A DNA stretch of 64,000 nucleotides. Origin: Lachnospiraceae bacterium (GTDB lineage: Bacteria; Bacillota; Clostridia; Lachnospirales; Lachnospiraceae). The notes under the pieces are model-generated. The model saw nothing but the letters and a program-made list of their open reading frames with translations. It did not search any database and was not told the origin of the DNA. A program made the translations under genes and the position numbers. The DNA lies in assembly GCA_015057425.1 (NCBI GenBank), contig SVEL01000011.1, positions 5,518-69,517 on the forward strand. Direction: 5' to 3'. Positions 5,756 to 44,543 of this stretch are shown piece after piece. How positions within the stretch are numbered: the first letter of the stretch is position 1; each line of letters begins with the position of its first letter.

Positions 5756-5794
5756 GATAGTAACGGTTGTATGAAGGAAGAGAGGATATGAAAT

Positions 5795-7895: not shown

Positions 7896-10343
7896 ATGAA
7901 AGGAAAGTTTACTAAGAGCGCAGTACTTGCAATTGAATATGCACATGATGTTGCCATAGAAATGGAAAAAGGTGTTATCGGTACAGAACATTTGCTTATT
8001 GGTCTGGTAAGAGTAGCTGATGGCACTGCATCCAAGGTGTTGGCTAATTATGGAATAAATGACGAAAAGCTTACTGAACTGGTTAAGAGATTTTCTGCAC
8101 CTATGAAAACAGTGATTCTTGGTGAACCGGAAGGCTTTTCGCCAAGAGCGGAAGAAGCTATAGAAAGAAGCTATAAAGAAGCACAGAAATTTGGGCATAC
8201 ACAGGTTGGTACAGGTTACATTTTGCTTTCACTTATAAAGGAAACTGAATGTGCAGCAACAAGAATTCTTGTAACACTTGATGTTAATTTGCAGAAAGTG
8301 TTTGCAGATTTGTTGATGGCGATGGGAGCAAGTCCTGAAATGATGAAGGAAGAAGTTATGTCCATCAAAAATGCACAAAATAAGAAACAGGGTACTTCTA
8401 TGCTCGCACAGTATAGTCGTAATCTTACTGACCTTGCAAAAGAAGATAAGTTAGATCCTGTATTTGGTAGGGAAGATGAACTTCAGAGAGTTATTCAGAT
8501 TTTAAGCAGAAGAATAAAAAATAATCCGTGCCTTATAGGCGAGCCGGGAGTTGGAAAGACAGCCATTGTTGAGGCTCTTGCCATGAAAATTGTCAGAGGT
8601 GATGTTCCGCAGACTATATCAGACAAGAAACTTGTAACATTGGATTTATCAGCATTAGTAGCAGGTTCCAAGTATAGAGGTGAGTTTGAAGAACGTATTA
8701 AGAGAATTATATCTGAAGTATCCCAGGATAAAGATGTATTATTATTTATAGATGAAATTCATACTATTATAGGTGCCGGTGGTGCAGAAGGTGCAATTGA
8801 TGCATCAAATATATTAAAGCCTGCACTTGCAAGAGGAGAAATTCAGATAATAGGAGCAACAACTACTTCGGAATACAGAAAGTATTTTGAAAAAGATGCG
8901 GCTCTTGAAAGAAGATTCCAGCCTGTAACAGTAGAGGAAACAACTATAGAAGAAACAATTACTGTCTTAATGGGAATAAGAGAAAAATATGAAGAGCATC
9001 ACAATGTTATTATTGACGATGGCGCTGTAGAAGCAGCTGTACGTTTATCTGAAAGATATGTAAATGACAGATATTTACCGGATAAGGCAATTGACTTAAT
9101 GGATGAGGCTGCCTCAAAAGTTAATCTTGCGTCTCATACTATGCCGCCTGAGCTGGCAGAACTTGGAAAACAGATTGCAGAACTTGAAAAAGAAAAAGAA
9201 TTATATTTGTCTAAGGAAAAGTTTTCAAAGGTTTCTGAAATTATGAAGGAACAGGAAACACTTCGTAACAGAGAATATAATGAAAGAGTAAAATGGGAAA
9301 AAGATAAGCGTAACCGAAAGGCTGTTGTAACGGAAAATGATATAGCAGATGTAGTTGCCAAATGGACAAAAATACCTGTCAAAAAAATATCCGAAGGTGA
9401 AGGAAAACGTCTGAAAAATCTTGAAAAGACACTTCATGAAAGAGTAGTAGGACAGGATGAGGCAGTTACGGCAGTTGCTAAAGCTGTAAGACGAGGCAGA
9501 GTAGGACTTAAAGATCCAAAACGACCAATAGGCTCATTTTTATTCCTTGGGCCAACAGGTGTAGGTAAGACAGAACTTTCAAAAGCATTGTCAGAAGCTG
9601 TTTTTGGAACGGAGAACTCTATAATCAGAGTTGATATGTCTGAATATATGGAAAAACACAGTGTTTCAAAGATAATAGGTTCACCGCCGGGATATGTAGG
9701 ATTTGATGAAGGCGGACAGTTAAGTGAACGTGTACGCAGAAATCCATATTCAGTTGTGCTTTTTGATGAAATTGAAAAAGCACATTCAGATGTGTTTAAT
9801 ATCTTACTCCAGATACTTGATGACGGACATGTTACAGATTCTCAGGGAAGAAAAGTTAATTTTAAAAACACCATAATAATAATGACATCAAACACGGGAG
9901 CCACGAAAATTATAGAACCGAAAAAACTTGGTTTTGGTGCTACTGAAGATGAAAAGACTGATTATGAACGTATGAAGCAGAATGTTATGGAGGAAGTAAA
10001 GAAACTTTTTAAACCGGAATTTCTTAACAGAATAGATGAAACTATTGTGTTCCATCCGTTGAACAAAGATGATAATGTCAAAATTGCAGGTATTATGCTT
10101 AAAGAAATATCATCAAGAATCAGTAAACAGCTTGATATTAACTTAAATATAACAGCTGCGGCAAAGAAACACATAGTTGATAAGAGCTTTGATAAAAAGT
10201 ATGGTGCAAGACCGCTTCGAAGAGCTCTTCAGACAATGGTTGAAGACAGACTTGCGGAAGAAATACTTGACGGCAAGATAAGCAAAGGTGATACAGTGGT
10301 GGTTTCTGTTGCCGGAGGAGAATTAAAGTTTGCGGTAAAATAA
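7896..10343 (+). CDS. clpC: ATP-dependent Clp protease ATP-binding subunit ClpC
   Basis: 815 aa. Clp_N repeats, two AAA+ modules (GEPGVGKT, GPTGVGKT) and a UVR-like linker. Confidence 0.93.
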   Translation: MKGKFTKSAVLAIEYAHDVAIEMEKGVIGTEHLLIGLVRVADGTASKVLANYGINDEKLTELVKRFSAPMKTVILGEPEGFSPRAEEAIERSYKEAQKFGHTQVGTGYILLSLIKETECAATRILVTLDVNLQKVFADLLMAMGASPEMMKEEVMSIKNAQNKKQGTSMLAQYSRNLTDLAKEDKLDPVFGREDELQRVIQILSRRIKNNPCLIGEPGVGKTAIVEALAMKIVRGDVPQTISDKKLVTLDLSALVAGSKYRGEFEERIKRIISEVSQDKDVLLFIDEIHTIIGAGGAEGAIDASNILKPALARGEIQIIGATTTSEYRKYFEKDAALERRFQPVTVEETTIEETITVLMGIREKYEEHHNVIIDDGAVEAAVRLSERYVNDRYLPDKAIDLMDEAASKVNLASHTMPPELAELGKQIAELEKEKELYLSKEKFSKVSEIMKEQETLRNREYNERVKWEKDKRNRKAVVTENDIADVVAKWTKIPVKKISEGEGKRLKNLEKTLHERVVGQDEAVTAVAKAVRRGRVGLKDPKRPIGSFLFLGPTGVGKTELSKALSEAVFGTENSIIRVDMSEYMEKHSVSKIIGSPPGYVGFDEGGQLSERVRRNPYSVVLFDEIEKAHSDVFNILLQILDDGHVTDSQGRKVNFKNTIIIMTSNTGATKIIEPKKLGFGATEDEKTDYERMKQNVMEEVKKLFKPEFLNRIDETIVFHPLNKDDNVKIAGIMLKEISSRISKQLDINLNITAAAKKHIVDKSFDKKYGARPLRRALQTMVEDRLAEEILDGKISKGDTVVVSVAGGELKFAVK

Positions 10344-34001: not shown

Positions 34002-35591
34002 TTATATAGAATTATTAATGTATCTGAAATAAATTTTGATTTCAGGTTGTGTATTCCTGGAATGATACGTTTTTCGTTTGCCAACGTGAATTGAATGAAT
34101 AAGAGAGGACATCACGTCAGATGTAATGGTTTCTATCGGACCGAGGGCTAAGGAAATCTCAGTAAGCTTTACGATGTTTTCGTAATTATTTTTAGCAGTG
34201 TTATATTCTTTCTCTAAGGCAGACAGATTCTTCCTGGCAGCAGTAATCTTTAAATCGTATGCATTTGTCAAAGTTTTAAAATGTTCTAAAGATATATTTC
34301 CTGTCGCATAATCCTTGTACGAGGAGACTAAAAGCTGGTCTAATTCTTCTATAAGTTCTTTGCAGGAAGAAATTTTCTTTGAAATAGAGTTTTGCTGCTG
34401 TGTCTGCTTTGAGATGGATTTTTGAATGTAACTTTCGATAAAACTCTGCTTATTATCAGAAACGGCAAGGAAAAGTTTGTTTATTTCCCGGAGCAAAGCT
34501 TCTTCTATCACGTGATTTCGCACATAATGAGAAGTACATACAGATGGAACCTTCTTGCTGTTGCTGCAAACATAGTGGCTGGTATCGGGATTGGAATTGT
34601 TACTTCGACCGTGATACATTCTTCCTTTACAATCATCACAATATACGTAGCCTGAAAAAATATCATTCTCTCCCAATCTGTTTGGTCGTCTTTTTAAGGA
34701 ACGTCGTTTTTTGACAAGTTCAAATTCGTCATCAGTGATTATTGGCGGGTGCATATTCGGAACGACAATGTGCGAGTCAGGCGGATTTTTGATAACCTTT
34801 TTACTCTTAAATGAAGGTCTGTAAGTTTTACCGCTTACAACACAACCTGTATATGTTTGATTTTCCAAAATGTTTACAATTGTAGATTTATCCCATATGT
34901 AAGGGTGCTCGGCACGTTTTTTGGAATAATATAAGCCGCTTTTTCTGTAATTATAGGCACCCGGAGAGAGGATTTGATGAGATTCCATATATCTGGAAAT
35001 TTGAGAAGGACCCATTCCCTCTATACATAGTTTAAATATAAGTCTGACATTTGGAGAGGTTTCCGGGTTGATGATATATTGCTTGCTTTCGGAATCCTTC
35101 ATATAACCATAAGGCACCGAGCCGGAAATGTGTTCGCCACGTAACGCCATGGAATGTTGGATAGCACGAATCTTTCGGCTTGTGTCCTTTGGATACCATT
35201 CATTAAATAAATCCCGCATCGGCAATAAATCATCAAGCCCTTTGTTGGTGTCAATGCCATCATTTACAGCGATGTATCTTATATTGTGGGCAATAAAATC
35301 ATCCATAAGAGAGCCGATTACAAGATAATTTCTTCCGAGTCGTGAATGATCTTTTACTATGATAGTGGAAATATCTCCATTTCGTACCTGGGACAACAGT
35401 CGGCTGAATGCCGGTCTTTCAAAATTGGTACCGGACCAACCATCGTCGATGTAGTATTCAATGTTAGTGAAATGGTGTTCGAAAGCATAGTTTCTTAAGA
35501 AAATTTTCTGGTTACTGATACTTCCGCTTTCTGTGTTTTGTTCATCGTCTTTACTTAATCTGCAGTAAAGTGCTGTAATCTTTTGTTTCAT
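34002..35591 (-). CDS. large serine recombinase (resolvase/invertase catalytic domain, recombinase domain, zinc ribbon, coiled coil)
   Basis: 529 aa. N-terminus ALYCRLSKDDE...SISNQ contains the catalytic Ser motif. VKDHSRLGRN motif. Cys cluster YCDDCKGRMY...YVCSN. Confidence 0.9.
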   Translation of the reverse strand: MKQKITALYCRLSKDDEQNTESGSISNQKIFLRNYAFEHHFTNIEYYIDDGWSGTNFERPAFSRLLSQVRNGDISTIIVKDHSRLGRNYLVIGSLMDDFIAHNIRYIAVNDGIDTNKGLDDLLPMRDLFNEWYPKDTSRKIRAIQHSMALRGEHISGSVPYGYMKDSESKQYIINPETSPNVRLIFKLCIEGMGPSQISRYMESHQILSPGAYNYRKSGLYYSKKRAEHPYIWDKSTIVNILENQTYTGCVVSGKTYRPSFKSKKVIKNPPDSHIVVPNMHPPIITDDEFELVKKRRSLKRRPNRLGENDIFSGYVYCDDCKGRMYHGRSNNSNPDTSHYVCSNSKKVPSVCTSHYVRNHVIEEALLREINKLFLAVSDNKQSFIESYIQKSISKQTQQQNSISKKISSCKELIEELDQLLVSSYKDYATGNISLEHFKTLTNAYDLKITAARKNLSALEKEYNTAKNNYENIVKLTEISLALGPIETITSDVMSSLIHSIHVGKRKTYHSRNTQPEIKIYFRYINNSI

Positions 35592-35633: not shown

Positions 35634-35642
35634 ATTATATCA
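35634..35642 (-). promoter_or_regulatory. extended -10 (TGaTATAAT) of the recombinase gene
   Basis: The minus strand reads agTGaTATAAT, about 45 nt upstream of the recombinase ATG (RBS GGAGG). Confidence 0.5.
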
Positions 35643-35643
35643 C

Positions 35644-35675
35644 TATGGCGGTATACCATTAGGGAACCCGCCATA
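35644..35675 (-). other. dyad-symmetric candidate recombinase binding/crossover site
   Basis: The minus strand reads TATGGCGG-gttccctAAtggtata-CCGCCATA: perfect 8 bp arms and a 16 nt spacer. The centre falls on the AA of the CCTAA core shared with the four cassette genes. Confidence 0.5.
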
Positions 35676-35805
35676 AGGGAGATAAAGAAACTAGGGATAA
35701 AAGAAGAGAAGTGATTCAGATAAATATATACCCAAAACGCTTCTCTAAAAGATGGAACTTCCTATATTAGAATTAATGATTATAAAATTGAATTAAATAG
35801 ATAGA

Positions 35806-36663
35806 TTATAGTTTGCAAGTACCACAATCTTTAGATTTCAGATCATTAAATTTCATTACAAATTCATCAACTGTTTTCGACTCTATCGCAAAGTCAAACC
35901 ACTTATCAAGAATATCCGAATTATTTTCATCTTTGATGGAACAAGTAACAATCTCAGGCACATCACCAAGTCGACAGAGTATACGTAATATATATTCAGT
36001 TTTGCCTTCATGTTTAGCTTTTTTTGATGTGCGATTAAGCAATTCTTCAAACTTCATATATCCCGCCTCCAATTCACGACTCTTTTTGAGTTTTGTTACC
36101 TCTTCGTGCAGCTTATGTATCAAAGGATTTTTGACGGTTGATACATATTCGTCACTTGTATTTTCGAAGTATTCAAAAAATTCCCGCAGCTCATCAGGTA
36201 AACTCTCAACATCTTTACCTTTAGTGTTAAAGAAAATCCTTTTAGCGCCATCACCAAGCTTCGCACCATCTTCTGAGCAGGATGCTTCATATGTATATCT
36301 GCAAAGTCCACGTCCAAACGGATCAAATGTACAGATAAATATGATAAAGCTATCTCCGAGTTTGTCATAACTGTCACCCGGTTTCAAAGAAGATATATCA
36401 ACTTCAGCCTGGTAATAACGACTTCGCTTTGGCAAATCATCTTCAGAGAAATTCTGCGCTTCAATATCATAATTAACATCAAATGAATCTGTTGCATGTA
36501 CATCAAGACGGATACATTTAACATCTGAGCTTATAAGTATCGGATGTTCTGACTTAACATTTAGATTATCCACGTGCTTTCCAAGCAACAATTCCAACAT
36601 AATTCTACAGTTATCGGGATTTTCAAATACAGCTGCAAAAAGAAAAGAACTGTTCAAATTCAA
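35806..36663 (-). CDS. Rpn-family recombination-promoting nuclease / PD-(D/E)XK putative transposase
   Basis: 285 aa. RLDVHATD...NYDIEAQN...RSRYY matches the D/ExQ/R-Y pattern of the PDDEXK_2 (YhgA/Rpn) family. The start codon is uncertain: TTG at 36663, or ATT 9 nt after GGAGG. Confidence 0.7.
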   Translation of the reverse strand: MNLNSSFLFAAVFENPDNCRIMLELLLGKHVDNLNVKSEHPILISSDVKCIRLDVHATDSFDVNYDIEAQNFSEDDLPKRSRYYQAEVDISSLKPGDSYDKLGDSFIIFICTFDPFGRGLCRYTYEASCSEDGAKLGDGAKRIFFNTKGKDVESLPDELREFFEYFENTSDEYVSTVKNPLIHKLHEEVTKLKKSRELEAGYMKFEELLNRTSKKAKHEGKTEYILRILCRLGDVPEIVTCSIKDENNSDILDKWFDFAIESKTVDEFVMKFNDLKSKDCGTCKL

Positions 36664-36728
36664 ATCTTTAAACTCTTTACTAATTATTAAACACCTCCTA
36701 CAAAATAGGAAGTTCCCTCTCTTAGAGA

Positions 36729-36756
36729 ATTATACCACTTATTGTATGTAAGTCAA
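36729..36756 (-). promoter_or_regulatory. promoter of the left Rpn gene
   Basis: The minus strand reads TTGACT, 16 nt spacer, TGgTATAAT. Confidence 0.55.
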
Positions 36757-36785
36757 TATATTTTGTATAAATAATTAGTGCCGAA

Positions 36786-36868
36786 TAAAAAACCGAGAGA
36801 CATTGTCTCTCGGTGGGAAAAGGAAAAACAAGCAAAAAAGAAGTCATACCCAAAAGTATGACTTCTTT
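36786..36868 (-). terminator. twin terminator hairpins downstream of cassette gene A
   Basis: On the minus strand: agaagtcatac...gtatgacttct plus a T run, then ccgagagacaatgtctctcgg plus a T run. Confidence 0.7.
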
Positions 36869-36900
36869 ATTAGTGAGAGTTAATTTATCAAGTAAGCTGA

Positions 36901-37827
36901 TTATTCAGCAACGGTTCTCTTTCTCATAACAACAACTACTGCCATAGCAGCTACTGCTAAGATAGCTACTGGAAGAACTGCTGTCATATCACCTGTTTCT
37001 GTTGCATCTTCTGTTTCTGTCTCTGTTGCAGTAGGAGCTGCATATAAAGCTGCTACATCTGCCGCACTTAATTCGCGTTCATAAATGCACACTTCGTCCA
37101 TTAAACCAGAGAAGTTAGCATTCCACCAGTCGCCACTTCCAATAAAACCAACATCTGTCCAAGATGCTGCATCATCACTAAACATGTTTAAATATGTTGA
37201 GCCATTGTCTGTAGAATAAGCAAACCAACCATCGTCAGTATAATTAGCTTCATCCCAGTATGTTGAAACTTCAACACCATCTACATAAACTGTTGCTTTG
37301 CCTGTTGCTGAAACAGTATATGTTAACATTGTCCACTTTGATGTATCCTGACCAACCTTACCTGTTCTCCAATGGTCACCTACTGCTGATTCCCAACTAA
37401 ATGCGCTTGACATAGCTGCACGTGATGCTGCGAATGCATCTGTTGTGTTATTTGAACAGAACTGGAAATACTGACAGCAACCGTCAAAGAACAATGCTGT
37501 TCCTGTTGCGTCATTCTTTACCCAATAACTAACTGTAAAAGCTGTTGTTGTAGGAAGCTTATCCAAGGCAATAGCTACTGCTGCGTTTGCAAGTGTACTT
37601 GTGCCAGCATTTGCTGAAAAGTCAAATGCTTTACCTTTGATACCACCGTCAACATAAGCCGCTGTTCCTTTGTTAAGTGTTGCATCTGAGTCAGCGGCAT
37701 CATTTGCCAAACTATCTTCGAAAGAGTATTTTGCTATTAACCCCGTTTCGATATCAGCCGCAAATGCAGGCGCTGCTAATGCAAGTGTCATTACTGTAGC
37801 TACTGCTACTGCAAAAAATTTCTTCAT
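36901..37827 (-). CDS. secreted LamG/concanavalin-like surface protein, cassette paralog A
   Basis: The start MKKFFAVAVATVMTLALAAPAFA follows GGAGG. LamG-type motif DEVCIYERELSAADVAALY. C-terminus ATETGDMTAVLPVAILAVAAMAVVVVMRKRTVAE. Confidence 0.85.
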   Translation of the reverse strand: MKKFFAVAVATVMTLALAAPAFAADIETGLIAKYSFEDSLANDAADSDATLNKGTAAYVDGGIKGKAFDFSANAGTSTLANAAVAIALDKLPTTTAFTVSYWVKNDATGTALFFDGCCQYFQFCSNNTTDAFAASRAAMSSAFSWESAVGDHWRTGKVGQDTSKWTMLTYTVSATGKATVYVDGVEVSTYWDEANYTDDGWFAYSTDNGSTYLNMFSDDAASWTDVGFIGSGDWWNANFSGLMDEVCIYERELSAADVAALYAAPTATETETEDATETGDMTAVLPVAILAVAAMAVVVVMRKRTVAE

Positions 37828-37887
37828 TTTTCTTTCTACCTCCAATATTAATGTGGTATTCCCCAAAGATAAAAATATATATTTAGG
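37779..37887 (-). repeat. conserved 5' module (CCTAA core, leader, RBS, signal-peptide codons), copy A
   Basis: Near-identical to 38817-38946, 39166-39295 and 41383-41512. Confidence 0.85.
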
Positions 37888-37922
37888 GAACCCGCCATAA
37901 GGGAGATGAAGAAAGAGAAATG

Positions 37923-37956
37923 AAAAAGAAGTCATACCAAAAAGTATGACTTCTTT
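37923..37956 (-). terminator. terminator hairpin downstream of cassette gene B
   Basis: The agaagtcatac / gtatgacttct stem plus a T run on the minus strand. Confidence 0.65.
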
Positions 37957-37989
37957 CATTAGTGAGAATTAATTTATTAAGTATGCTGA

Positions 37990-38886
37990 TTATTCAGCGA
38001 CTGTTCTCTTTCTCATAGCAACAACTACTGCCATAGCAGCTACTGCTAAGATAACTACAGGAAGAACTGCTGTCATATCACCTGTTTCTGTTGCTTCTTC
38101 TGTTTCTGTTTCCTGAATGAATTCGCCTGCTGCTGCTGATGCAACTCCAGCTGCATCTAATTCATCAAACCAAATTGCTACATCATCAAACAAAAGATGT
38201 GAGTCTCTATCTGTCCAGCAGTGATTGTGATATCCACCGATAGTAGCTATAGTATACAAATCTGAGAATGCATCACCAGTATCTGTACGATCTAAACTAT
38301 TAAGAACTTCGCCATCAAGATAAACAACTGACTTTGTAGCAGTTACAGTATAAACCAAATGATGCCACTCGTTGTCATCAAGATATCCGTCATAATTGTT
38401 TGTGTTATATGCGTTGTTATCAAAGAAACCGCCGTTATTAACATGCATTGTTCCTCTAACACCAAAAACTGTCCACTGCCAGTCAGCATCAGGATTCTGC
38501 GCTGTAAATATTGGTGCCCAGCCGTCGCCGATTTCTGTCCAATTAGTAACATCATTATTTGACGCAGGTGATTTTACCCACATACTAAGTGAAAACTCTT
38601 CTGCTGCTGCAAGATCTTCCAAAAACTTTTCAGGAAGTTTTAAATAATCTGTACGCTGTGCTGAAGCTGAACCAGTTACGTTGTCAAATACCTTTCCGCG
38701 TGCATCATCTGCAATTGCACCTGATCCAACAATTGTAAGTGCTGTATCTGTTTCTCCTGCAAGACCTGCATTGTTTAAATTTCCTTCGAAATCATAATAA
38801 TAATTAGGTGCATCCATTGCGAAAGCTGAAACTGACATAGCAAGTGTTGTCACTGTAGCTAAAGCTACTGCAAAAATTTTTTTCAT
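37990..38886 (-). CDS. secreted LamG-like surface protein, cassette paralog B
   Basis: Start MKKIFAVALATVTTLAMSVSAFA. Motif FDDVAIWFDELDAAGVA. Same ETGD-TM-RKRTVAE tail. Confidence 0.85.
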   Translation of the reverse strand: MKKIFAVALATVTTLAMSVSAFAMDAPNYYYDFEGNLNNAGLAGETDTALTIVGSGAIADDARGKVFDNVTGSASAQRTDYLKLPEKFLEDLAAAEEFSLSMWVKSPASNNDVTNWTEIGDGWAPIFTAQNPDADWQWTVFGVRGTMHVNNGGFFDNNAYNTNNYDGYLDDNEWHHLVYTVTATKSVVYLDGEVLNSLDRTDTGDAFSDLYTIATIGGYHNHCWTDRDSHLLFDDVAIWFDELDAAGVASAAAGEFIQETETEEATETGDMTAVLPVVILAVAAMAVVVAMRKRTVAE

Positions 38887-38946
38887 TTTTCTTTCTACCT
38901 CCAATATTAATGTGGTATTCCCCAAAGATAAAAATATATATTTAGG
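38817..38946 (-). repeat. conserved 5' module, copy B (left arm of the inverted repeat flanking the B-C intergenic segment)
   Basis: The first 83 nt from the core are identical to copy C in inverted orientation. A few mismatches follow, out to ~130 nt. Confidence 0.85.
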
Positions 38947-39110
38947 GAACCTGCCATAAGGGAGATGAAGAAAGAAGAGAATGATATGTTGTGAAAACTT
39001 GATAAGTTTCGATAAAGAGTTGACACAGCGTTTAGTATAAATGTGGAGTTTTACTAAACAAAACGTGGTAAAATTCGGATTAAAAAAATAAAAAAAGAAT
39101 TAACATTATG

Positions 39111-39139
39111 TTGACAATAACTTAAATAAATGATATTAT
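39111..39139 (+). promoter_or_regulatory. near-consensus sigma-A promoter facing cassette gene C
   Basis: TTGACA (39111-39116), 17 nt spacer ending in TGa, TATTAT (39134-39139). Confidence 0.65.
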
Positions 39140-39165
39140 TTTTTTATCTTAAAAAAAGAGGTATG

Positions 39166-39295
39166 CCTAAATATATATTTTTATCTTTGGGGAATACCAC
39201 ATTAATATTGGAGGTAGAAAGAAAAATGAAAAAAATTTTTGCAGTAGCTATGGCTACAGTAATGACACTTGCTATGTCAGTTTCAGCTTTCGCTG
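39166..39295 (+). repeat. conserved 5' module, copy C (right arm of the inverted repeat)
   Basis: Homology to the other copies begins exactly at CCTAA (39166-39170). The upstream sequence is unique and carries the promoter. Confidence 0.85.
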
Positions 39296-40137
39296 CAACA
39301 CCAGTTTACTTCAATGATTTTGAAGATGGCGCAGGCGATGCAACAATCGTAGGTAGTGGTGCAATTGAAGATGATGCCAATGAAAAATATGGAAAGGTTT
39401 TCCATAACGCAGTAGGCGATGCAACAAATGTTAGAACAAATTACTTGCTTTTACCGGAAGATGTATTATCACATAGCGTAGATTCAAAAGAATTAACTAT
39501 TCAGTTTTGGGTCAACTTAGGTGCAACAGGTACAAATGATATGTATTCTCCGTTATTTGGTGCTTATGCTGCAGAACCACCTGCAACAGGAAATTCATGG
39601 CCGATGTTGGTTCTTCAGTCAAGATTACTTGCTCAGGTTAACTGTGCCGGATGGAGTGATCTTACAGCAGATCAGAATCTTGAAGGCGGAAATACAGAAG
39701 ATGTTACATGGTTAGATGACAAAGAATGGCACTTATACACAGTTACATTTGATGAAGAAATCGTAACAATTTATGTTGATGGTGTTGTTAAGCAGAAATG
39801 GGATGCTTCAACAGATTATGGCACAAACACTGACACAACAGTAGCTGGTTTGTATTCAAACGGTGCAGACCTTAAGTATATCTGCCTTGGTGGTAACCAG
39901 GCTTGGAACTGGGGCGATCCAGATGCTGACTATTTATTTGATGATGTTGCAATCTACAACGTAGCTTTATCAGCAGATGATATTGCTGATGTTATGGAAG
40001 CAAAGACAGCAGAAGCTTCAGACACAGAAGATGCAACAGAAACAGGTGATATGACAGCAGTTCTTCCAGTAACTATCTTAGCAGTAGCTGCTATGGCAGT
40101 AGTTGTTGTTATGAGAAAGAGAACAGTTGCTGAATAA
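39226..40137 (+). CDS. secreted LamG-like surface protein, cassette paralog C
   Basis: Start MKKIFAVAMATVMTLAMSVSAFA. Motif FDDVAIYNVALSADDIADV. Same ETGD-TM-RKRTVAE tail. Confidence 0.85.
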   Translation: MKKIFAVAMATVMTLAMSVSAFAATPVYFNDFEDGAGDATIVGSGAIEDDANEKYGKVFHNAVGDATNVRTNYLLLPEDVLSHSVDSKELTIQFWVNLGATGTNDMYSPLFGAYAAEPPATGNSWPMLVLQSRLLAQVNCAGWSDLTADQNLEGGNTEDVTWLDDKEWHLYTVTFDEEIVTIYVDGVVKQKWDASTDYGTNTDTTVAGLYSNGADLKYICLGGNQAWNWGDPDADYLFDDVAIYNVALSADDIADVMEAKTAEASDTEDATETGDMTAVLPVTILAVAAMAVVVVMRKRTVAE

Positions 40138-40169
40138 TCAGCTTACTTAATAAATTAACTCTCACTAAT

Positions 40170-40251
40170 AAAGAAGTCATACTTTTGGGTATGACTTCTT
40201 TTTTGCTTGTTTTTCCTTTTCCCGCCGAGAGACAATGTCTCTCGGTTTTTT
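40170..40251 (+). terminator. twin terminator hairpins downstream of cassette gene C
   Basis: The same two hairpins as at 36786-36868, in mirror orientation. Confidence 0.7.
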
Positions 40252-40278
40252 ATACTCATTGTTTTTATGCAAAATGTA

Positions 40279-40306
40279 TTGACATATAAACAATATGTGG
40301 TATAAT
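40279..40306 (+). promoter_or_regulatory. promoter of the right Rpn gene
   Basis: TTGACA (40279-40284), 16 nt spacer, TGgTATAAT (-10 at 40301-40306). Confidence 0.6.
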
Positions 40307-40341
40307 GAATGAAAGGAAACTTCCTGTTTTGTAGGAGGTGT

Positions 40342-41238
40342 TTGTTAATTAATAAGGATTTTAAAGATTTAAATTTAAACAGTTCGTTTCTTTTTGCGGC
40401 AGTATTTGAAAATCCAGACAATTGCAGAATTATGCTGGAACTGTTACTTGGGAAACACATCGACAATCTAAGTGTTAAATCTGAGCATCCGCTACTTATA
40501 AGTACAGATGTCAAATGTATTCGGCTCGATGTACATGCCACAGATTCCTACGATGTTAATTATGATATCGAAGCACAGAATTTCTATGAGGATGACCTGG
40601 CAAAGAGAAGCCGTTATTATCAAGCAGAATTAGATGTGGCATCTTTAAAACCTGGTGACAGCTATGATAAACTTGGTGATTCTTTTATCATATTTATCTG
40701 TACATTTGATCCGTTCGGTCGAGGGCTTTGCAGATATACATATGAAGCCTCTTGTTCAGAGGATGGCGAAAAGCTTGGCGATGGCGCAAAAAGGATTTTC
40801 TTTAATACCAAAGGAAAAGATGTGGAGAGTTTATCTGCTGAACTGAGGGAGTTTTTTGGATATTTCGAAAACACAAATGACGCGTATGTATCAACTGTCA
40901 ACAATCCTTTGATACACAAGTTACATAAAGAAGTTACCAAACTTAAAAAGAGTCGTGAATTGGAGGCCGGATATATGAAGTTTGAAGAGTTGCTCAATCG
41001 AACATCGGAAAAAGCTAAGCGTGAAGGCAAAATTGAAGGTAAGATCGAAGATATATTACGTATACTCTGTCGCCTTGGTGATATCCCTGAAGATGTCACC
41101 TGTTCTATCAAGCACGAAAACAATTCAGAGATTCTCGATAAGTGGTTTGACATTGCAATAGAATCAAAAAACGTTGATGAATTTATAAAAAAGTTTAAAA
41201 GTCTGAACTCTAAGGATTATGGTGCTTACAAACTATAA
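40342..41238 (+). CDS. Rpn-family recombination-promoting nuclease / PD-(D/E)XK putative transposase (second copy)
   Basis: Roughly 85-90 percent identical by eye to the 35806-36663 product, with one 4 aa indel. The ORF-track ATG at 40309 lies 2 nt after the -10 and so upstream of the likely TSS. The real start is probably TTG 40342 or ATT 40348. Confidence 0.7.
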   Translation: MLINKDFKDLNLNSSFLFAAVFENPDNCRIMLELLLGKHIDNLSVKSEHPLLISTDVKCIRLDVHATDSYDVNYDIEAQNFYEDDLAKRSRYYQAELDVASLKPGDSYDKLGDSFIIFICTFDPFGRGLCRYTYEASCSEDGEKLGDGAKRIFFNTKGKDVESLSAELREFFGYFENTNDAYVSTVNNPLIHKLHKEVTKLKKSRELEAGYMKFEELLNRTSEKAKREGKIEGKIEDILRILCRLGDIPEDVTCSIKHENNSEILDKWFDIAIESKNVDEFIKKFKSLNSKDYGAYKL

Positions 41239-41382
41239 TCTGTCTATTTGATTAAAATTTATTATCATTAAAGATTTACACAGGAAGTTCCATCTTTTTA
41301 GAGAAGTGTTTTGGGTATATATTTATCTAAATCACTTCTCTTATTTTATCCCTATTTTCTTCATATCCCTTATGGCAGGTTC

Positions 41383-41512
41383 TCTAAATATATATTTTTA
41401 TCTTTGGGGAATACCGCATTAATATTGGAGGTAGAAAGAAAAATGAAGAAAATTTTTGCAGTAGCAGTAGCTACAGTAATGACACTTGCTATGTCAGTTT
41501 CAGCTTTCGCTG
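41383..41512 (+). repeat. conserved 5' module, copy D
   Basis: Same leader, RBS and signal peptide. The core has one change (tctaa). Confidence 0.8.
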
Positions 41513-42237
41513 CAACAGAAGACAGGGTTGTTTATCAGAAAAATACTTATGCACTTGATGGTGATGCAACAACAGTAGAAAGTATGGATAATCCATTATT
41601 AAATCTTGATGCAAGCAAGATTGTAGTTGAATTCACAGTAACATCTCAGCAGCAGTTTGCAGCTTGGCCTATGGTAGCTTGTTTCTACAATTTAGATGAT
41701 AACGATGCTCCAAGAGGTGCAGCAGCAGTCAATTACTGGCCAAAGATTGAATTAAACAAATTTGATGATCCAAACCAGTGGTGTTCAGCAGGTTCAGGTG
41801 AGGCAAACAACGGTGGTACAATTTATGCGGATACACACTGTGATGGTCAGCCACATACATACAAATATGAAATCACAGACACAGCTGTTGTTATGACAGT
41901 TGATGGTACAGTCATCACTACAAAGTATGGTTATGGTGATGGGGCTTCAACAGATGCTGAATGTGCTGCTATGATTTTGGATTATATGAATACAGCTGCG
42001 AAATTTTCATTAGGAGCTGGAAGCAATATTTTTACTTGGGGTGAATTAACAGGTACACTTGAAAACTTCAAGATTACAGCTACAGTAGAAGCAACTGAAC
42101 CAACTCCAACAGAAGGAACGGAAACAGAAGATGCAACAGAAACAGGAGATATGACAGCAGTTCTTCCAGTAGCTATCTTAGCAGTAGCTGCTATGGCAGT
42201 AGTAGTTGTTATGAGAAAGAGAACAGTTGCTGAATAA
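41443..42237 (+). CDS. secreted surface protein, cassette paralog D (divergent beta-rich core)
   Basis: Start MKKIFAVAVATVMTLAMSVSAFA. Same ETGD-TM-RKRTVAE tail. The core lacks the LamG end motif. Confidence 0.8.
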   Translation: MKKIFAVAVATVMTLAMSVSAFAATEDRVVYQKNTYALDGDATTVESMDNPLLNLDASKIVVEFTVTSQQQFAAWPMVACFYNLDDNDAPRGAAAVNYWPKIELNKFDDPNQWCSAGSGEANNGGTIYADTHCDGQPHTYKYEITDTAVVMTVDGTVITTKYGYGDGASTDAECAAMILDYMNTAAKFSLGAGSNIFTWGELTGTLENFKITATVEATEPTPTEGTETEDATETGDMTAVLPVAILAVAAMAVVVVMRKRTVAE

Positions 42238-42274
42238 TATTTAGTTACTGAATTTAATAACAAAAATAAGAACA

Positions 42275-42362: not shown

Positions 42363-42391
42363 TTGACAAATGATATAAAAGAATATAGAAT
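42363..42391 (+). promoter_or_regulatory. promoter of the 42450 gene
   Basis: TTGACA, 17 nt spacer, TAGAAT. Confidence 0.55.
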
Positions 42392-42449
42392 TAGCATTGT
42401 AAGGTAATTGGATTGTATGATTACAAAAAGTCTATTTGGGAGGAGAACA

Positions 42450-43295
42450 ATGAAGAAAAAGTTTTTTGCGGTAGTCGCTACGACTGTGATAACAGCTATG
42501 ATGTCGCTTACAGCATTTGCATCATCGTTTCAGCTTACAGAAAGTAGCACATACAAGTATGCCAATCCGTTAAAAGGTACTAATCCGGAAGAAGTAACTA
42601 TTGAATACACTATCACTGCAGCTGATAATGCAGCGGCAAATGGATGGGATGGTATATTATCATTCTATAACTCGAGTACATTGGGACGTGTTTCTATTCA
42701 AAGTCATCCGTATGTATGTTGGAATTCAGCTAATGCAGCAGCAGGATGGATTGACCATAAGGCATCAGCATTACAGATAAAGAAGGGCGTTGAACAGTCA
42801 TATAAGATTGTTATTAATAAGGATGGAATTCAGATGTTTTTAAATGGTGAAGCAATAACAAGTGCTGATACAGGTACATCGGCAGGCGATGCAACACCTA
42901 TAGCGGTTACATATCAGAATATTCTTGATGAAATTAACGGATGTGATTATTTCTTTGTAGGCGTAGGAAAAGCACAGTATTGCTATTGGAATACGGAGGT
43001 TTGTACGTTAACAGGCGTTAAAGTCAATGGTAAGGAATTTGACCCGGATAAGATTTTGCAGGAAGAGACAACGACGTTGGGAGTTCCTGAAAAGAACACT
43101 ATGGATTATGGTGTTCCTGTAGATGATAGCGGTTCAGTGAATATAGTGCCGGTTATTGTGGTATCGGTAGTTGCAGTTCTTGCAGTGGTTGTGGTTGTAG
43201 TTGTTCTTGTGATTGTTATATCTAAAGGAAAGAAAAAGAATAATGACGAAGAAATAAATAAAGAATCGCAGGAAGAGACGAATTCGGAAGAATAA
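42450..43295 (+). CDS. secreted, TM-anchored surface protein (lectin-like beta-rich ectodomain, acidic cytoplasmic tail)
   Basis: MKKKFFAVVATTVITAMMSLTAFA follows GGGAGGAG. C-terminal TM helix VPVIVVSVVAVLAVVVVVVVLVIVI, then KGKKK and an acidic tail. Confidence 0.75.
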   Translation: MKKKFFAVVATTVITAMMSLTAFASSFQLTESSTYKYANPLKGTNPEEVTIEYTITAADNAAANGWDGILSFYNSSTLGRVSIQSHPYVCWNSANAAAGWIDHKASALQIKKGVEQSYKIVINKDGIQMFLNGEAITSADTGTSAGDATPIAVTYQNILDEINGCDYFFVGVGKAQYCYWNTEVCTLTGVKVNGKEFDPDKILQEETTTLGVPEKNTMDYGVPVDDSGSVNIVPVIVVSVVAVLAVVVVVVVLVIVISKGKKKNNDEEINKESQEETNSEE

Positions 43296-43348
43296 ATTTA
43301 TACAAATTACTTTTGATTAATTTTATTTAATAATCGTTTTACTTTTAT

Positions 43349-43377
43349 TTGACTTTAATACATAAATGTGATATAAT
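43349..43377 (+). promoter_or_regulatory. promoter of the 43446 gene
   Basis: TTGACT, 17 nt spacer ending in TGa, TATAAT. Confidence 0.6.
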
Positions 43378-43445
43378 TTTGTCATATTTATGGGATAAAA
43401 GAAACATAAATTTATCAAATTCAATAATCTAAGGGAGGAAAGAAA

Positions 43446-44543
43446 ATGAAGAAAAGAATTTTTGCAGCAGTTATTACTGCTATGATGACAGTATCTATGG
43501 CTGTATCAGCATTTGCAGCAGATATTGAATCAGATCTTATTGGTAAGTTTACATTTGATGAAAACATCACAAATGCAGTTACCGGAGAAGACGCTAAGAT
43601 TATTGCTCAGAAGGGATTAGGCCCTGATGCAGCAGCAGTAGAGTACACATTCCCATTCGTAGATGGTGTAGATGGTAAGGCTCTTCATTTAGGTACAGAC
43701 ACAACAGGTGCAGCTAATACAAACGCACTTAACTTAAACCTTAAGGTTAAAGATGACCAGAACTATACATTCTCAGTATGGGTAAAGGCTTTCGAAGAAA
43801 GAGTTAACTTTGCTTGTCCTGTTGTTTGGATGGGTAAAGCAGTTCAGTCTCCAGAAAACTGGGTAGGTATCTGGCCAGGACTTGCTGGTGACTATGCAAA
43901 TGGTCCATGTTTCGGTGCTAACGGTATTATCGACAGCTCAGAAGTTGTTACAAGATTAGGTGCTGTACCTCTTACAGACGAAGGTCTTGGTATTAAGAAA
44001 CCTGTTAACGCTGAAGTTAAGACAACATTTGAATGGACAAATATTACTGCAGTAGTTAAAGATGGTATTGCTTGGTTATACTATGATGGAAAGTTAGTAG
44101 CTTCAACAGAAGGTAAGAACGGTACTAATGGTGATCAGCAGTTAACACCACATGTAAATGAAGATGATACAGTAAGCATTTACCTTGGTGCAAACTACTG
44201 GGATGCTCCGTTCGTAGGATATGTTGATGACTTATACATCTATGACAGAGCTTTAACAACAGAAGATGTAGTTGCATTAGTAACAGAAACAAACAAAGCC
44301 GGTGTTGCATTAGGCGACTATTCAGAATATGTTACAACAACAACAATCGACTACACAAAGAAACCAAGTATCAACAAGAATCCTGATTGGGTACAGGAAG
44401 AAGAAGATTCTATGTTAGTACCAATTATTATTGCAGCAGCAGTAGTAGTTGTATTAGTAGTAGTTATCGTATTGGTATTAGTAGTAAGCAAGTCAAAGAA
44501 GAAAGACGATGCTGAAGAAGATGCAGAAGATACAAACGCTTAA
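43446..44543 (+). CDS. secreted LamG-domain protein with C-terminal TM anchor and acidic tail
   Basis: 365 aa. Signal peptide ending SAFA, LamG motif VDDLYIYDRALTTEDVVAL, TM helix, then KSKKKDDAEEDAEDTNA. Confidence 0.85.
   Translation: MKKRIFAAVITAMMTVSMAVSAFAADIESDLIGKFTFDENITNAVTGEDAKIIAQKGLGPDAAAVEYTFPFVDGVDGKALHLGTDTTGAANTNALNLNLKVKDDQNYTFSVWVKAFEERVNFACPVVWMGKAVQSPENWVGIWPGLAGDYANGPCFGANGIIDSSEVVTRLGAVPLTDEGLGIKKPVNAEVKTTFEWTNITAVVKDGIAWLYYDGKLVASTEGKNGTNGDQQLTPHVNEDDTVSIYLGANYWDAPFVGYVDDLYIYDRALTTEDVVALVTETNKAGVALGDYSEYVTTTTIDYTKKPSINKNPDWVQEEEDSMLVPIIIAAAVVVVLVVVIVLVLVVSKSKKKDDAEEDAEDTNA

Follow-up and report, generated by a model that had tools for sequence, protein, structure and literature searches.

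A probable multi-site promoter shufflon beside a TnpX-like recombinase gene in a Lachnospiraceae bacterium

A 64,000-nucleotide stretch of a gut Lachnospiraceae contig (hereafter, the window) contains a locus that we consider likely to be a multi-site promoter shufflon, in which one promoter segment is switched among the leaders of surface-protein genes by inversion. In the proposed mechanism, the segment at 38947-39165 would move by site-specific inversion among the leaders of four genes, g1 to g4, using putative CCTAA-core sites located in each gene leader and in the leader of an adjacent recombinase gene. Since the promoter would serve one leader at once, one gene would be transcribed at a time, g3 in the window.

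Organization of the locus

Each putative site may be described as an upstream half, P (promoter) or X (promoterless), joined to a downstream half, Y (gene leader with RBS) or Z (recombinase leader). Two inverted sites, on recombining, would exchange their upstream halves. The features of the locus are:

34002-35591 (-): large serine recombinase gene, TnpX-like, 529 aa, the proposed invertase
35640-35682 (-): site A (X-Z), recombinase leader, core CCTAA at 35659-35663
35806-36663 (-): RPN1, Rpn-family PD-(D/E)XK gene (TIGR01784, E 3e-25; PDDEXK_2), own predicted promoter at 36756-36729
36785-37032 (-): 3' module of g1 and two terminator hairpins, an inverted repeat of 40006-40253 (96%)
36901-37827 (-): g1, LamG surface protein, X-Y leader, predicted silent in the window arrangement
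37883-37887 (-): core CCTAA of site B (X-Y), g1 leader
37955-38112: 3' module of g2, equivalent to that of g1
37990-38886 (-): g2, LamG surface protein, predicted silent in the window arrangement
38942-38946 (-): core CCTAA of site C (X-Y), g2 leader
38947-39165 (+): putative movable promoter segment, with an X element at its left end, an A-rich tract, -35, -10 and then GTATG beside the core
39166-39170 (+): core CCTAA of site D (P-Y), ~20 nt into the predicted g3 transcript
39226-40137 (+): g3, LamG surface protein, the promoter-linked copy, predicted expressed
40309-41238 (+): RPN2, second Rpn-family gene, own predicted promoter at 40279-40306
41383-41387 (+): core TCTAA of site E (X-Y), g4 leader
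41443-42237 (+): g4, surface protein without Pfam match, predicted silent in the window arrangement
42097-42238: 3' module of g4, equivalent to that of g1
42408-44543 (+): g5 and g6, non-switching paralogs with their own predicted promoter (42363-42391) and different C-terminal anchors

The coordinates and translations that the original prediction gave for g1 to g4 are correct. Its extent, 36901-42237, fits these genes but leaves out the recombinase gene, the recombinase-leader site and a ~1.4-kb inverted repeat (35652-37032 versus 40006-41394). This repeat holds both Rpn-family genes, RPN1 within one arm; RPN2 is 84% identical to RPN1 and inverted. That first reading had also missed the strong promoter facing g3 only, the junctions at the CCTAA core, the fifth of which lies in the recombinase leader, and the rearrangement at the core elsewhere.

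Among g1-g4, g3 is the sole gene faced by a strong promoter (39111-39139; -35 TTGACA at 39111-39116, -10 TATTAT at 39134-39139, TG upstream of the -10), which scores 11/12 with TG, this and all other promoter calls being consensus matches only. The other top matches of the scan belong to RPN1 (11/12), RPN2 and g5, and no promoter-like site of at least 10/12 was found upstream of g1. Where g3 has P, genes g1, g2 and g4 have the promoterless element X (~35 nt or more), and the X and P sequences part exactly at CCTAA; the shared upstream sequence that had been predicted is not the same for all four genes, since X is a further stretch common to g1, g2 and g4 alone. The X motif occurs four times in 64 kb (0.03 expected), and GTATGCCTAA once in the window (0.15 expected by chance). 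The promoter segment aligns with its counterparts in the related loci L031, L032 and L116 at the X end, TTGACA, the -10 and GTATGCCTAA. Site A displays a dyad, TATGGCGG-N16-CCGCCATA, centred on the AA of the core, which is probably where crossover occurs, and an extended -10 (TGATATAAT) in Z, just downstream. A hairpin and U tract at ~41300-41345 precede site E. No recombination-site motifs were found at g5/g6.

Conserved gene ends and diverged cores

The four genes had been described as near-identical 5' and 3' ends around unrelated, hypervariable cores. Binned pairwise alignment and a repeat search bear out the ends. The 5' module common to g1-g4 consists of a 62-nt leader and 45-75 nt of signal-peptide coding sequence, with ~90-98% identity and then an abrupt fall to background. 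When 15-nt bins are counted from the CCTAA core, all pairs match at 13-15/15 across the leader and mostly at 12-15/15 across the first 45-75 coding nucleotides, and the bins that follow drop to a background of 1-8/15. The repeat search recovers these modules as repeats of 128-162 nt (82-96% identity). The 3' module, predicted as the last ~115-120 nt, spans ~120 nt at 12-15/15 per 15-nt bin in all six gene pairs (2-11/15 beyond it), and in g1, g2 and g3 the identity runs ~70-130 nt past the stop codon, across the terminator hairpin. It codes for the tail ...TETGDMTAVLPVAILAVAAMAVVVVMRKRTVAE, which is kept across species. In three related species, its nucleotide identity is 94-100% within a genome versus 77-91% between species; in the more distant L116 pair, it is 53-60% identical to that of other species. 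Exchange of this module is homologous, because its crossover points vary: the 3' junctions of two variant contigs, L010 and L022, switch at differing positions. The 3' module is thus a conserved C-terminal anchor tail homogenised within each genome, not a second site-specific site.

The cores, by contrast, are ordinary distant paralogs, neither unrelated nor hypervariable. Those of g1-g3 share 25-34% amino-acid identity (alignment z = 8-17 versus shuffles) and, in agreement with the original prediction of LamG-type domains in three genes, match Laminin_G_3 in Pfam (E 7e-14, 3e-11 and 9e-14, respectively). The Pfam search found no Laminin_G_3 match in g4, which is kin to the adjoining gene at 42450-43295 (g5) rather than to g1-g3 (25% identity, E 6e-10). 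At the 5' sites, the promoter moves rather than the cores. The 5' modules would represent a shared recombination site, leader and signal peptide, and homologous exchange or gene conversion may hold both modules to a common sequence in each genome, with the cores diverging as paralogs. The gene ends would be near-identical because the genes take turns, by inversion, at the single promoter of the locus.

Rearrangement within the strain and in related species

Alternative junctions are present in same-strain contigs that are otherwise ~100% identical to the window. In L010, P is joined to the g1 core (site B recombined with site D), with g1-type sequence from the ATG on. In L022, the g4 upstream region (XE) is joined to g1 (site B with site E), and flanking SNPs confine the crossover to a 36-nt interval holding the core. 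P precedes g3 in the window and in ~10 other distinct contigs, and g1 in one; among the contigs examined, it was never seen before g2, g4 or the recombinase gene. In at least six distinct contigs, an end falls within the 5' module; contig ends lie beside P in L004, L005, L006 and L009 and beside site C in L013/L015, and L016 begins just beyond the g3 signal peptide. L010 and L022 are short-read metagenome contigs, and each also carries a non-reference junction in the 3' module. Since these junctions need homologous recombination, RecA-type exchange clearly acts at the locus too. The g1 core is present twice in L022, which therefore either carries a duplication or records how an assembler traversed a mixture of isomers. 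Fixed differences that separate very close strains could account for the variant contigs. We infer that switching occurs within populations and that expression is limited to the P-linked gene. Inversions among the five sites give 48 computed arrangements; one step is enough to bring P to g1, g2 or the recombinase gene, and g4 takes two.

The design recurs in five related loci, together with the site motifs: GTATG/CCTAA (GTTTG in L114), TTAYGGYGG..CCTAA and CCTAA/TGG (TGC in L114), the slash marking the core boundary. These motifs were all absent from 1.2 Mb of sequence surrounding 80 TnpX-like recombinases that are more distantly related. L031 (recombinase 72% identical) occupies the same chromosomal position, and L116/L117 and L114 occupy other positions. 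An X-Z site precedes each recombinase gene in L031, L032/L033, L116/L117 and L114; L031, L116/L117 and L114 each have one P-Y site as well, and L031 and L116 have further X-Y sites before genes whose signal peptide and tail are the same.

The related genomes were compared for rearrangement between identical flanks, which was found in L032 and L033, MAGs of a related species whose recombinases are identical to each other (50% identity to that of the window). Their flanks are 100% and 99.96% identical, and they differ solely by inversions beside the recombinase gene. All new junctions are at CCTAA, including the X-Z site, whose partners lack homology beyond the core; the Z-site exchange falls within ~10 nt of the core, as indicated by a C/T SNP in X. 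The inversions shift the promoter, TTGACA-N17-TATAAT, from one surface gene to another: it is directed at the LamG gene in L033 and at a 246-aa gene in L032.

Rearrangement solely by general homologous recombination (RecA-type, possibly Rpn-assisted) between long repeats, with the recombinase an unrelated bystander such as a mobile-element relic, seems to us unlikely. Campylobacter fetus sap works in this manner: several surface-layer protein genes with conserved 5' regions depend on one promoter carried by an invertible segment, and inversion is RecA-dependent, relying on long 5' homology without a dedicated recombinase. The repeats here (128-248 nt at 90-97%) are long enough, and the variable 3' switch points, the mosaic 5' modules (g3 of L008 carries g2-type SNPs in the signal peptide; L119 is mosaic too) and the two Rpn "recombination-promoting nuclease" genes within the locus fit such a process. 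However, P-Y and X-Z partners in L031 and L116 have just the CCTAA core in common, and the X-Z exchange in L032/L033 is beyond RecA, because ~10 nt of homology is too short. The site motifs are kept across species despite diverged flanks, and the leader of the recombinase gene itself always contains one site. Unlike in sap, the short conserved core and adjacent recombinase point to site-specific exchange, and homologous exchange appears to be a second layer only.

It is very unlikely that there is no programmed switching, the genes being tandem or inverted paralogs with signal peptide and anchor under selection and the variant contigs repeat assembly artefacts. Signal peptides and C-terminal anchors are conserved as protein across species, metagenome assemblers do mis-join repeats, and the double g1 of L022 is implausible; yet the identity has sharp edges and spans untranslated leaders, synonymous sites and terminators, and paralog tails are more alike within a genome than between the three related species. 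The inversions in L032 and L033 are clean and come from MAGs assembled independently, and the L010/L022 junctions combine SNPs at most 38 nt apart, which must lie on single reads or k-mers. The single promoter and conserved core would also be left unexplained.

The recombinase and known systems

The recombinase matches Pfam Resolvase, Recombinase and Zn_ribbon_recom, with a weak match to DUF4368, and so has the full domain set of a large serine recombinase. Its best match among solved structures is the TnpX catalytic domain (2mhc_A, E 1.6e-31), and eight homologs all retain the R11-x-S13 motif along with many other residues of the catalytic domain. Its adjacency and co-conservation with the sites suggest that this enzyme would catalyze the inversions. 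The directional behaviour of known large serine integrases counts against the promoter-shufflon model, as one enzyme must pair P-Y, X-Y and X-Z sites in many ways.

The original prediction placed the genes with rearranging surface-protein families (Mycoplasma vsa/vsp, shufflon-type systems). This is supported by the adjoining recombinase gene, the single strong promoter, the core in every leader and the breaks at the core in L010, L022 and L032/L033. In Mycoplasma agalactiae vpma and M. bovis vsp, silent genes are placed behind a unique promoter by inversion; as here, the 5' untranslated region and signal peptide are conserved among several surface-protein genes, the locus has a single promoter, the recombinase gene adjoins the array, and recombination sites lie within ~70 nt upstream of start codons (PMC2268961). 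Those systems, however, belong to Mollicutes, not Lachnospiraceae, use a tyrosine recombinase of the lambda-integrase family (Xer1/Mbr) instead of a 529-aa large serine recombinase, and vary lipoproteins with repeats instead of LamG-type domains with a C-terminal anchor tail. Here, moreover, the recombinase leader is itself a site and the silent copies bear a defined X element. Hin, Gin and Bacteroides Mpi are likewise members of the serine recombinase superfamily that invert promoter- or gene-containing segments for phase variation. Such small serine invertases are described in PMC3798978 as ~190 aa with a C-terminal helix-turn-helix, Hin and Gin requiring a Fis-bound enhancer. In contrast, the present enzyme has the recombinase and zinc-ribbon domains of large serine recombinases, and it scores 35.6 bits against the NCBIfam Mpi model (cutoff 272).

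The closest characterised relatives are the clostridial enzymes TnpX (Tn4451/Tn4453) and TndX (Tn5397), which have the same domain set. These enzymes both excise and insert with no separate directionality factor, a property that would fit a reversible invertase. They move transposons via circular intermediates, with GA as crossover dinucleotide, whereas the present locus is chromosomally fixed, carries no transposon cargo and has a CCTAA core in sites that are inverted. According to Lyras and Rood (2000), as cited in PMC13023037, recombination in Tn4451 creates a promoter for tnpX, an event that parallels the predicted P-Z state. That the recombinase and repeats are instead an integrated mobile element (a Tn4451-like transposon or prophage remnant, with X repeats as attachment sites) is extremely improbable: TnpX is a transposon enzyme, the broader recombinase family sits in Clostridia mobile elements and the Rpn genes are annotated as putative transposases, but the locus keeps its position in three species (between ABC-3/DegV/purL and a sugar-transport cluster) with recombinases just 50-72% identical, contains no transfer, replication or phage genes, and has inverted rather than direct sites, the observed events being inversions, not excisions.

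The literature searched yielded no described equivalent in Clostridia, which is absence of evidence only. In the promoter shufflon proposed here, an enzyme class better known for moving transposons and phages apparently inverts a promoter.

Conserved ends and diverged cores of the surface-protein genes

Four surface-protein genes, g1–g4, have the positions and translations that were originally predicted.

Surface-protein genes, with the coding segments of their C-terminal tails
36901–37827, minus strand, g1 (tail 36901–37005)
37990–38886, minus strand, g2 (tail 37990–38095)
39226–40137, plus strand, g3 (tail 40033–40137)
41443–42237, plus strand, g4 (tail 42133–42237)

Pairwise identity was counted in 15-nt bins from a common anchor, the stop codon for the 3' end. 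The 62-nt leader is 13–15/15 identical per bin in all pairs of g1–g4, and the first 45–75 nt of coding sequence mostly 12–15/15, with the next bins falling to 1–8/15. Leader and early coding sequence (~90–100% identical across the four genes) represent a conserved 5' untranslated region (UTR) and signal peptide. At the 3' end, the last 120 nt up to the stop codon (eight bins) are 12–15/15 identical, and the ninth bin back drops to 2–9/15. A repeat search recovered the modules as direct or inverted repeats of 121–162 nt with 82–97% identity. Common, near-identical modules, as proposed, are thus present at both ends and terminate abruptly; given such sharp edges, divergence is not uniform along the whole gene.

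The cores were originally described as unrelated, which is not the case. Those of g1–g3 align at 25–34% amino acid identity (alignment z = 8–17 against shuffled sequences). g4 is related to the adjoining downstream gene, g5 (25% identity, E 6e-10), and g1 to the paralog g6 (28% identity, E 2e-13). The Laminin_G_3 assignment (PF13385, cutoff 27.6 bits) holds for g1 (52.6 bits), g2 (44.0 bits) and g3 (52.3 bits) and fails for g4, which is without any Pfam match. The paralogy of the cores, together with the near-identical modules, describes ordinary diverged paralogs whose ends have been homogenised.

The g3 core is a common domain, matched by 333 cluster representatives of a 50%-identity library, often within much larger proteins whose C-terminal ends are quite different. 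Its relatives at ~45–55% identity (P0150, P0169, P0204 and others) occur in proteins that, by eye, resemble Bacteroidota proteins with T9SS-type C-terminal sorting domains, and are also repeated as modules within proteins as long as 2356 aa. This core thus appears to be a widely shared module carrying ends for export and anchoring that differ by lineage. Homologs of g4 are nearly absent, and its single-sequence AlphaFold model is unusably poor (pLDDT 45).

The genes g5 and g6 (42408–44543, plus strand) are paralogous, g5 to g4 and g6 to g1. A promoter of their own serves the pair, their lysine-rich C-terminal anchors are distinct, and no recombination sites were found there. They appear to be constitutive family members beside the switching array; the pair is also found in two related loci (L031 and L032/L033). 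Elsewhere in the window (3695–7870), two large proteins contain cadherin-like domains, one of them with a type I dockerin, which suggests that the organism may build cellulosome-like surface assemblies.

The 3' module encodes ...TETGDMTAVLPVAILAVAAMAVVVVMRKRTVAE. A tail of this kind (xTGD, a hydrophobic stretch, and K/R-K/R-R-T-V-A/T-E) ends the switching genes in all related species, including L031, L032 and L116. The hydrophobic stretch is preceded by TPxTGD in several relatives, where the tail resembles a clostridial sortase-type sorting signal, and by ATETGD in the window genes. NCBIfam and Pfam anchor models, including the LPXTG type (TIGR01167), gave no match to it at E≤0.01, the 46-aa C-terminal tail gave no matches when searched by itself, and no sortase gene was found among the scanned window ORFs of ≥200 aa. 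At the nucleotide level the tails are 94–100% identical among paralogs in one genome and 77–91% identical between three related species, while those of the more distant L116 pair are only 53–60% identical to the others. The higher identity within than between genomes indicates concerted evolution.

One predicted promoter, five leader sites and a large serine recombinase

In a consensus scan, the sole strong predicted promoter facing any of the four genes lies before g3 (39111–39139), with transcription predicted to begin near 39146. No strong promoter was found upstream of g1, g2 or g4, and the remaining top matches belong to g5 and to two genes of the Rpn family. Upstream of their leaders, g1, g2 and g4 share an element X, ...CTTATGGC[A/G]GGTTC[C/T]CTAA. 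In its place g3 has a promoter-bearing segment P, consisting of TTGACA-N17-TATTAT with an upstream TG, followed by ...GAGGTATG. Both types of upstream sequence join the common leader, Y, exactly at CCTAA. The leader of the recombinase gene, Z, is preceded by the same X, and X-Z and X-Y part right after CCTAA, so that this core is common to all five leaders. X-Z contains a dyad, TATGGCGG-N16-CCGCCATA, whose axis lies between the two A's (AA being the predicted crossover dinucleotide), and the recombinase gene's own extended -10, TGATATAAT, directly follows the core.

Recombinase gene, CCTAA cores and X elements
34002–35591, minus strand, large serine recombinase (529 aa), directly left of the array
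35659–35663, minus strand, core of site A, recombinase leader (X-Z)
37883–37887, minus strand, core of site B, g1 leader
38942–38946, minus strand, core of site C, g2 leader
39166–39170, plus strand, core of site D, g3 leader, promoter-linked
41383–41387, plus strand, core of site E, g4 leader
37888–37925, element X
38947–38985, element X
41345–41382, element X

The window contains four copies of the X motif (0.03 expected) and one of GTATGCCTAA (0.15 expected). Rfam has no family for the conserved leader (best matches E ~0.1, below gathering), and neither the 33-nt Y nor a degenerate X-Z pattern matched a metagenome contig collection without these organisms. An 11-mer, ACGTGGTAAAA, lying upstream of the movable promoter with its orientation kept, is confined to two species (window 39063–39073; L032 at 7473 and L033 at 9827), and could be a site for a regulator or accessory factor, or a chance occurrence.

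The recombinase combines a catalytic domain bearing the serine with recombinase and zinc-ribbon domains (Resolvase PF00239, Recombinase PF07508 and Zn_ribbon_recom PF13408, all above cutoffs; the DUF4368 match is weak), as expected of a TnpX-like large serine recombinase. Catalytic-domain residues including R11-x-S13 are invariant among its homologs. Among solved structures, its best match is the TnpX catalytic domain (E 1.6e-31), from a clostridial transposon enzyme. A small invertase of the Hin/Gin/Mpi type (~190 aa, a catalytic domain with a C-terminal HTH) is excluded by the length of 529 aa and the large-serine domains; under the Mpi model the protein reaches 35.6 bits (cutoff 272).

Homologs include one protein at 72% identity (P0002) and others at ~45–52% (P0003–P0020). 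Scans of genome and viral contig collections with the recombinase alignment gave only relatives of ≤41% identity in other contexts, which served solely as negative controls for the site motifs; none of these motifs was found in 1.2 Mb around 80 more distant TnpX-like recombinases. From its adjacency and its co-conservation with the sites in five loci, we infer that switching depends on this recombinase.

The design is kept in relatives. L031, whose recombinase is the homolog of 72% identity, occupies the same chromosomal position as the window locus and has three genes of the same orientation whose signal peptide and tail are those of the window genes. Two of them lie behind X-Y and one behind P-Y, and X-Z stands before the recombinase gene. 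L116/L117 has this layout at a different chromosomal position; a run of N at ~8706–9690 interrupts the promoter-linked gene in L116, a further sign of assemblers failing at such loci. In L114, a P-Y site (GTTTG for GTATG) and an X-Z site (TGC for TGG after the core) lie 1.7 kb apart. The promoter segments of four species can be aligned only at the X end, an A-rich tract, TTGACA, the -10 and GTATGCCTAA.

The window locus, L031 and L032/L033 all lie between ABC-3/DegV/purL genes and a sugar-uptake cluster, and the rest of the window consists of housekeeping and carbohydrate genes. No mobile-element genes were found at the locus or in the scanned window. A phage, transposon or ICE is therefore rejected as the source of the enzyme and locus, on synteny in three species and on gene content, and the arrangement is indicative of a resident chromosomal system.

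Rearranged loci in relatives and in the same strain

Rearrangement between identical flanks, which the original prediction proposed to look for in related genomes, is seen between L032 and L033. These two MAG assemblies identically encode a recombinase of 50% identity (P0011). Of their flanks, one matches at 100% identity along 7.3 kb and the other at 99.96% along 11.8 kb. The differences are confined to the neighbourhood of the recombinase gene.

Order of elements in the two assemblies (strand in parentheses; REC, recombinase gene)
L033: g246 (minus), Y'-X'a, Rpn (minus), LamG300 (minus), Y'-P', spacer, Xb-Z, REC (plus)
L032: g246 (minus), Y'-P', spacer, Xb-Y, LamG300 (plus), Rpn (plus), Xa-Z, REC (plus)

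Two inversions interconvert the arrangements, with all junctions at CCTAA. In L033 the gene faced by the promoter (TTGACA-N17-TATAAT) is LamG300; in L032 it is g246. The site at the recombinase leader has also exchanged its X, as Xa and Xb can be told apart by a C/T SNP 10 nt from the core. Since Z and Y are alike only at the core, this exchange cannot be due to RecA-type recombination.

For the strain itself, exact-protein look-ups gave ~30 JGI/ENA metagenome loci ~100% identical to the window, all short-read assemblies, and window segments were mapped onto every locus. Most of the contigs have the window arrangement (~10 distinct contigs with P before g3), and two differ. The first, L010 (ENA, 2.7 kb), has the order RPN2 (minus), g1 core (minus), promoter segment (minus), g2 (plus). 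Here g1 is joined to the promoter, with g1-type sequence from the start codon on, which is the expected product of inversion between sites B and D. In the second, L022 (JGI 3300028242, Ga0302102_10021446; 7.4 kb), the leader and core of g1 are joined to XE, the upstream region of g4. SNPs are XE-type 5 nt before the CCTAA core and g1-type 33 nt after it, bracketing the crossover to 36 nt that include the core; this junction is the expected product of sites B and E. Over the whole contig the g1 core appears two times (g1-RPN2-XE-g1-RPN1), an order beyond the reach of inversions alone. Either the duplication is real, arising for instance when two isomers exchange unequally, or the assembler traced a path across mixed isomers. 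None of the predicted junctions of P with g2, g4 or the recombinase gene was present among all fetched loci.

The ends of at least six distinct contigs fall within the 5' module, either next to P (L004, L005, L006 and L009) or next to site C (L013/L015), and L016 begins just past the g3 signal peptide. Between L005 and L016, which come from one sample, the missing piece is exactly the 5' module. These breaks hint at mixed connections in the reads.

In both L010 and L022 the g1 core is joined to the RPN2-side flank, which requires exchange within the 3' module. The crossovers fall within ~24 nt after the stop region in L010 and within the following 75 nt in L022, and given these different points the 3' module is rejected as a second site-specific site. 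Mosaic 5' modules were also found. L008 (~1242–1249) has a g3 signal peptide with a g2-type TTA codon change (protein P0125), and L119 (2240–2359) an XE-linked leader that has a non-g4 SNP and, after it, a g4-type signal peptide; the two modules look like footprints of gene conversion. The differing 3' crossovers and the mosaic 5' modules argue for homologous exchange or gene conversion acting on both modules, on top of the site-specific system.

The window also encodes two PD-(D/E)XK "recombination-promoting nucleases" that are 84% identical, each gene with a near-consensus promoter. They are situated within invertible segments, as a 1.4-kb inverted repeat. One Rpn gene is present in L031 and one in L032/L033; L116 has none.

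Rpn-family genes
35806–36663, minus strand, RPN1
40309–41238, plus strand, RPN2

Proposed mechanism and its significance

The original assignment to rearranging families of variable surface proteins is supported by anatomy, variant junctions and cross-species conservation. At that level, as read from DNA, the mechanism can be regarded as shown, and we infer the catalyst, switching in populations and the consequences for expression. Inversion between any two opposite-facing sites would swap their upstream halves and hand the promoter segment from leader to leader. Enumeration of inversions gave 48 arrangements; a single step takes P to g1, g2 or the recombinase gene, and two steps take it to g4. 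In L031 and L116, where the surface genes face the same way, the promoter would pass between genes only by prior docking at the recombinase gene.

Silent copies appear to be doubly locked, by terminators before X and by sequestration of the Shine-Dalgarno sequence by X. Terminator hairpins precede X at g1, as does a hairpin with a U tract at g4 and at the recombinase gene. X itself contains CCTCC and UUCUUUCU, complementary to the ribosome-binding region of the leader (GGAGG..AGAAAGAA). The predicted unpaired probability of the Shine-Dalgarno sequence is 0–0.33 in eight X-Y leaders versus 0.12–0.81 in P-Y leaders. These folding predictions are suggestive only, and X could be a translational lock on silent copies.

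One joint reading of the locus is possible, if as a whole somewhat doubtful. A TnpX-type large serine recombinase may have been domesticated as a reversible, multi-site chromosomal invertase that works without a separate directionality factor. Its own gene would be a docking site for the movable promoter, the predicted P-Z state, with every surface gene off and the strong promoter driving the recombinase, would be both self-limiting and an obligatory intermediate in same-facing arrays (L031, L116), and the anti-Shine-Dalgarno in X would add a second lock on unselected copies.

Functionally, the locus is of the Mycoplasma vpma/vsp design, in which the 5' UTR and signal peptide are conserved, the promoter is unique, the sites lie in the leaders and a recombinase is adjacent (PMC2268961). 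The two share paralogous surface genes with a conserved 5' UTR and signal peptide, one promoter (predicted here), and leader sites where arrangements break. They differ in that the enzyme here is a large serine recombinase instead of a tyrosine one, the host a Gram-positive anaerobe of the gut, and the recombinase gene itself a docking site. A strict shufflon (R64 Rci) uses a tyrosine recombinase to reassort the alternative 3' coding segments within a single gene. Here the enzyme is of the serine type and the site-specific crossover lies in the untranslated leader without reassorting coding sequences, so the locus is not a strict shufflon. Tn4451, whose TnpX belongs to the same enzyme family, offers a parallel to the promoter creation predicted here, as its recombination makes a promoter for tnpX (Lyras and Rood 2000, as cited in PMC13023037). 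A literature search for natural invertases of the large serine/DUF4368 type, or for such invertible elements in Lachnospiraceae, returned nothing relevant, an outcome that does not prove novelty.

Owing to their directionality, large serine recombinases are mainstay tools in genome engineering and in synthetic DNA memory. A natural one that flips DNA both ways among several site pairings would, if confirmed, be a useful tool and a test case for the loss of directionality. With short conserved sites (~40 bp around CCTAA) and a small enzyme, the idea is directly testable in E. coli. Since metagenome assemblies break at the locus, systems of this kind probably go under-reported.

For Bacteroides, Mycoplasma and pathogens, there are good descriptions of phase variation in surface structures. 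To our knowledge, it is barely described in Lachnospiraceae, which are dominant in gut and rumen communities. The locus suggests that these bacteria vary lectin-like surface proteins, which would bear on phage escape, attachment to plant fibre or mucus, and antibody evasion.
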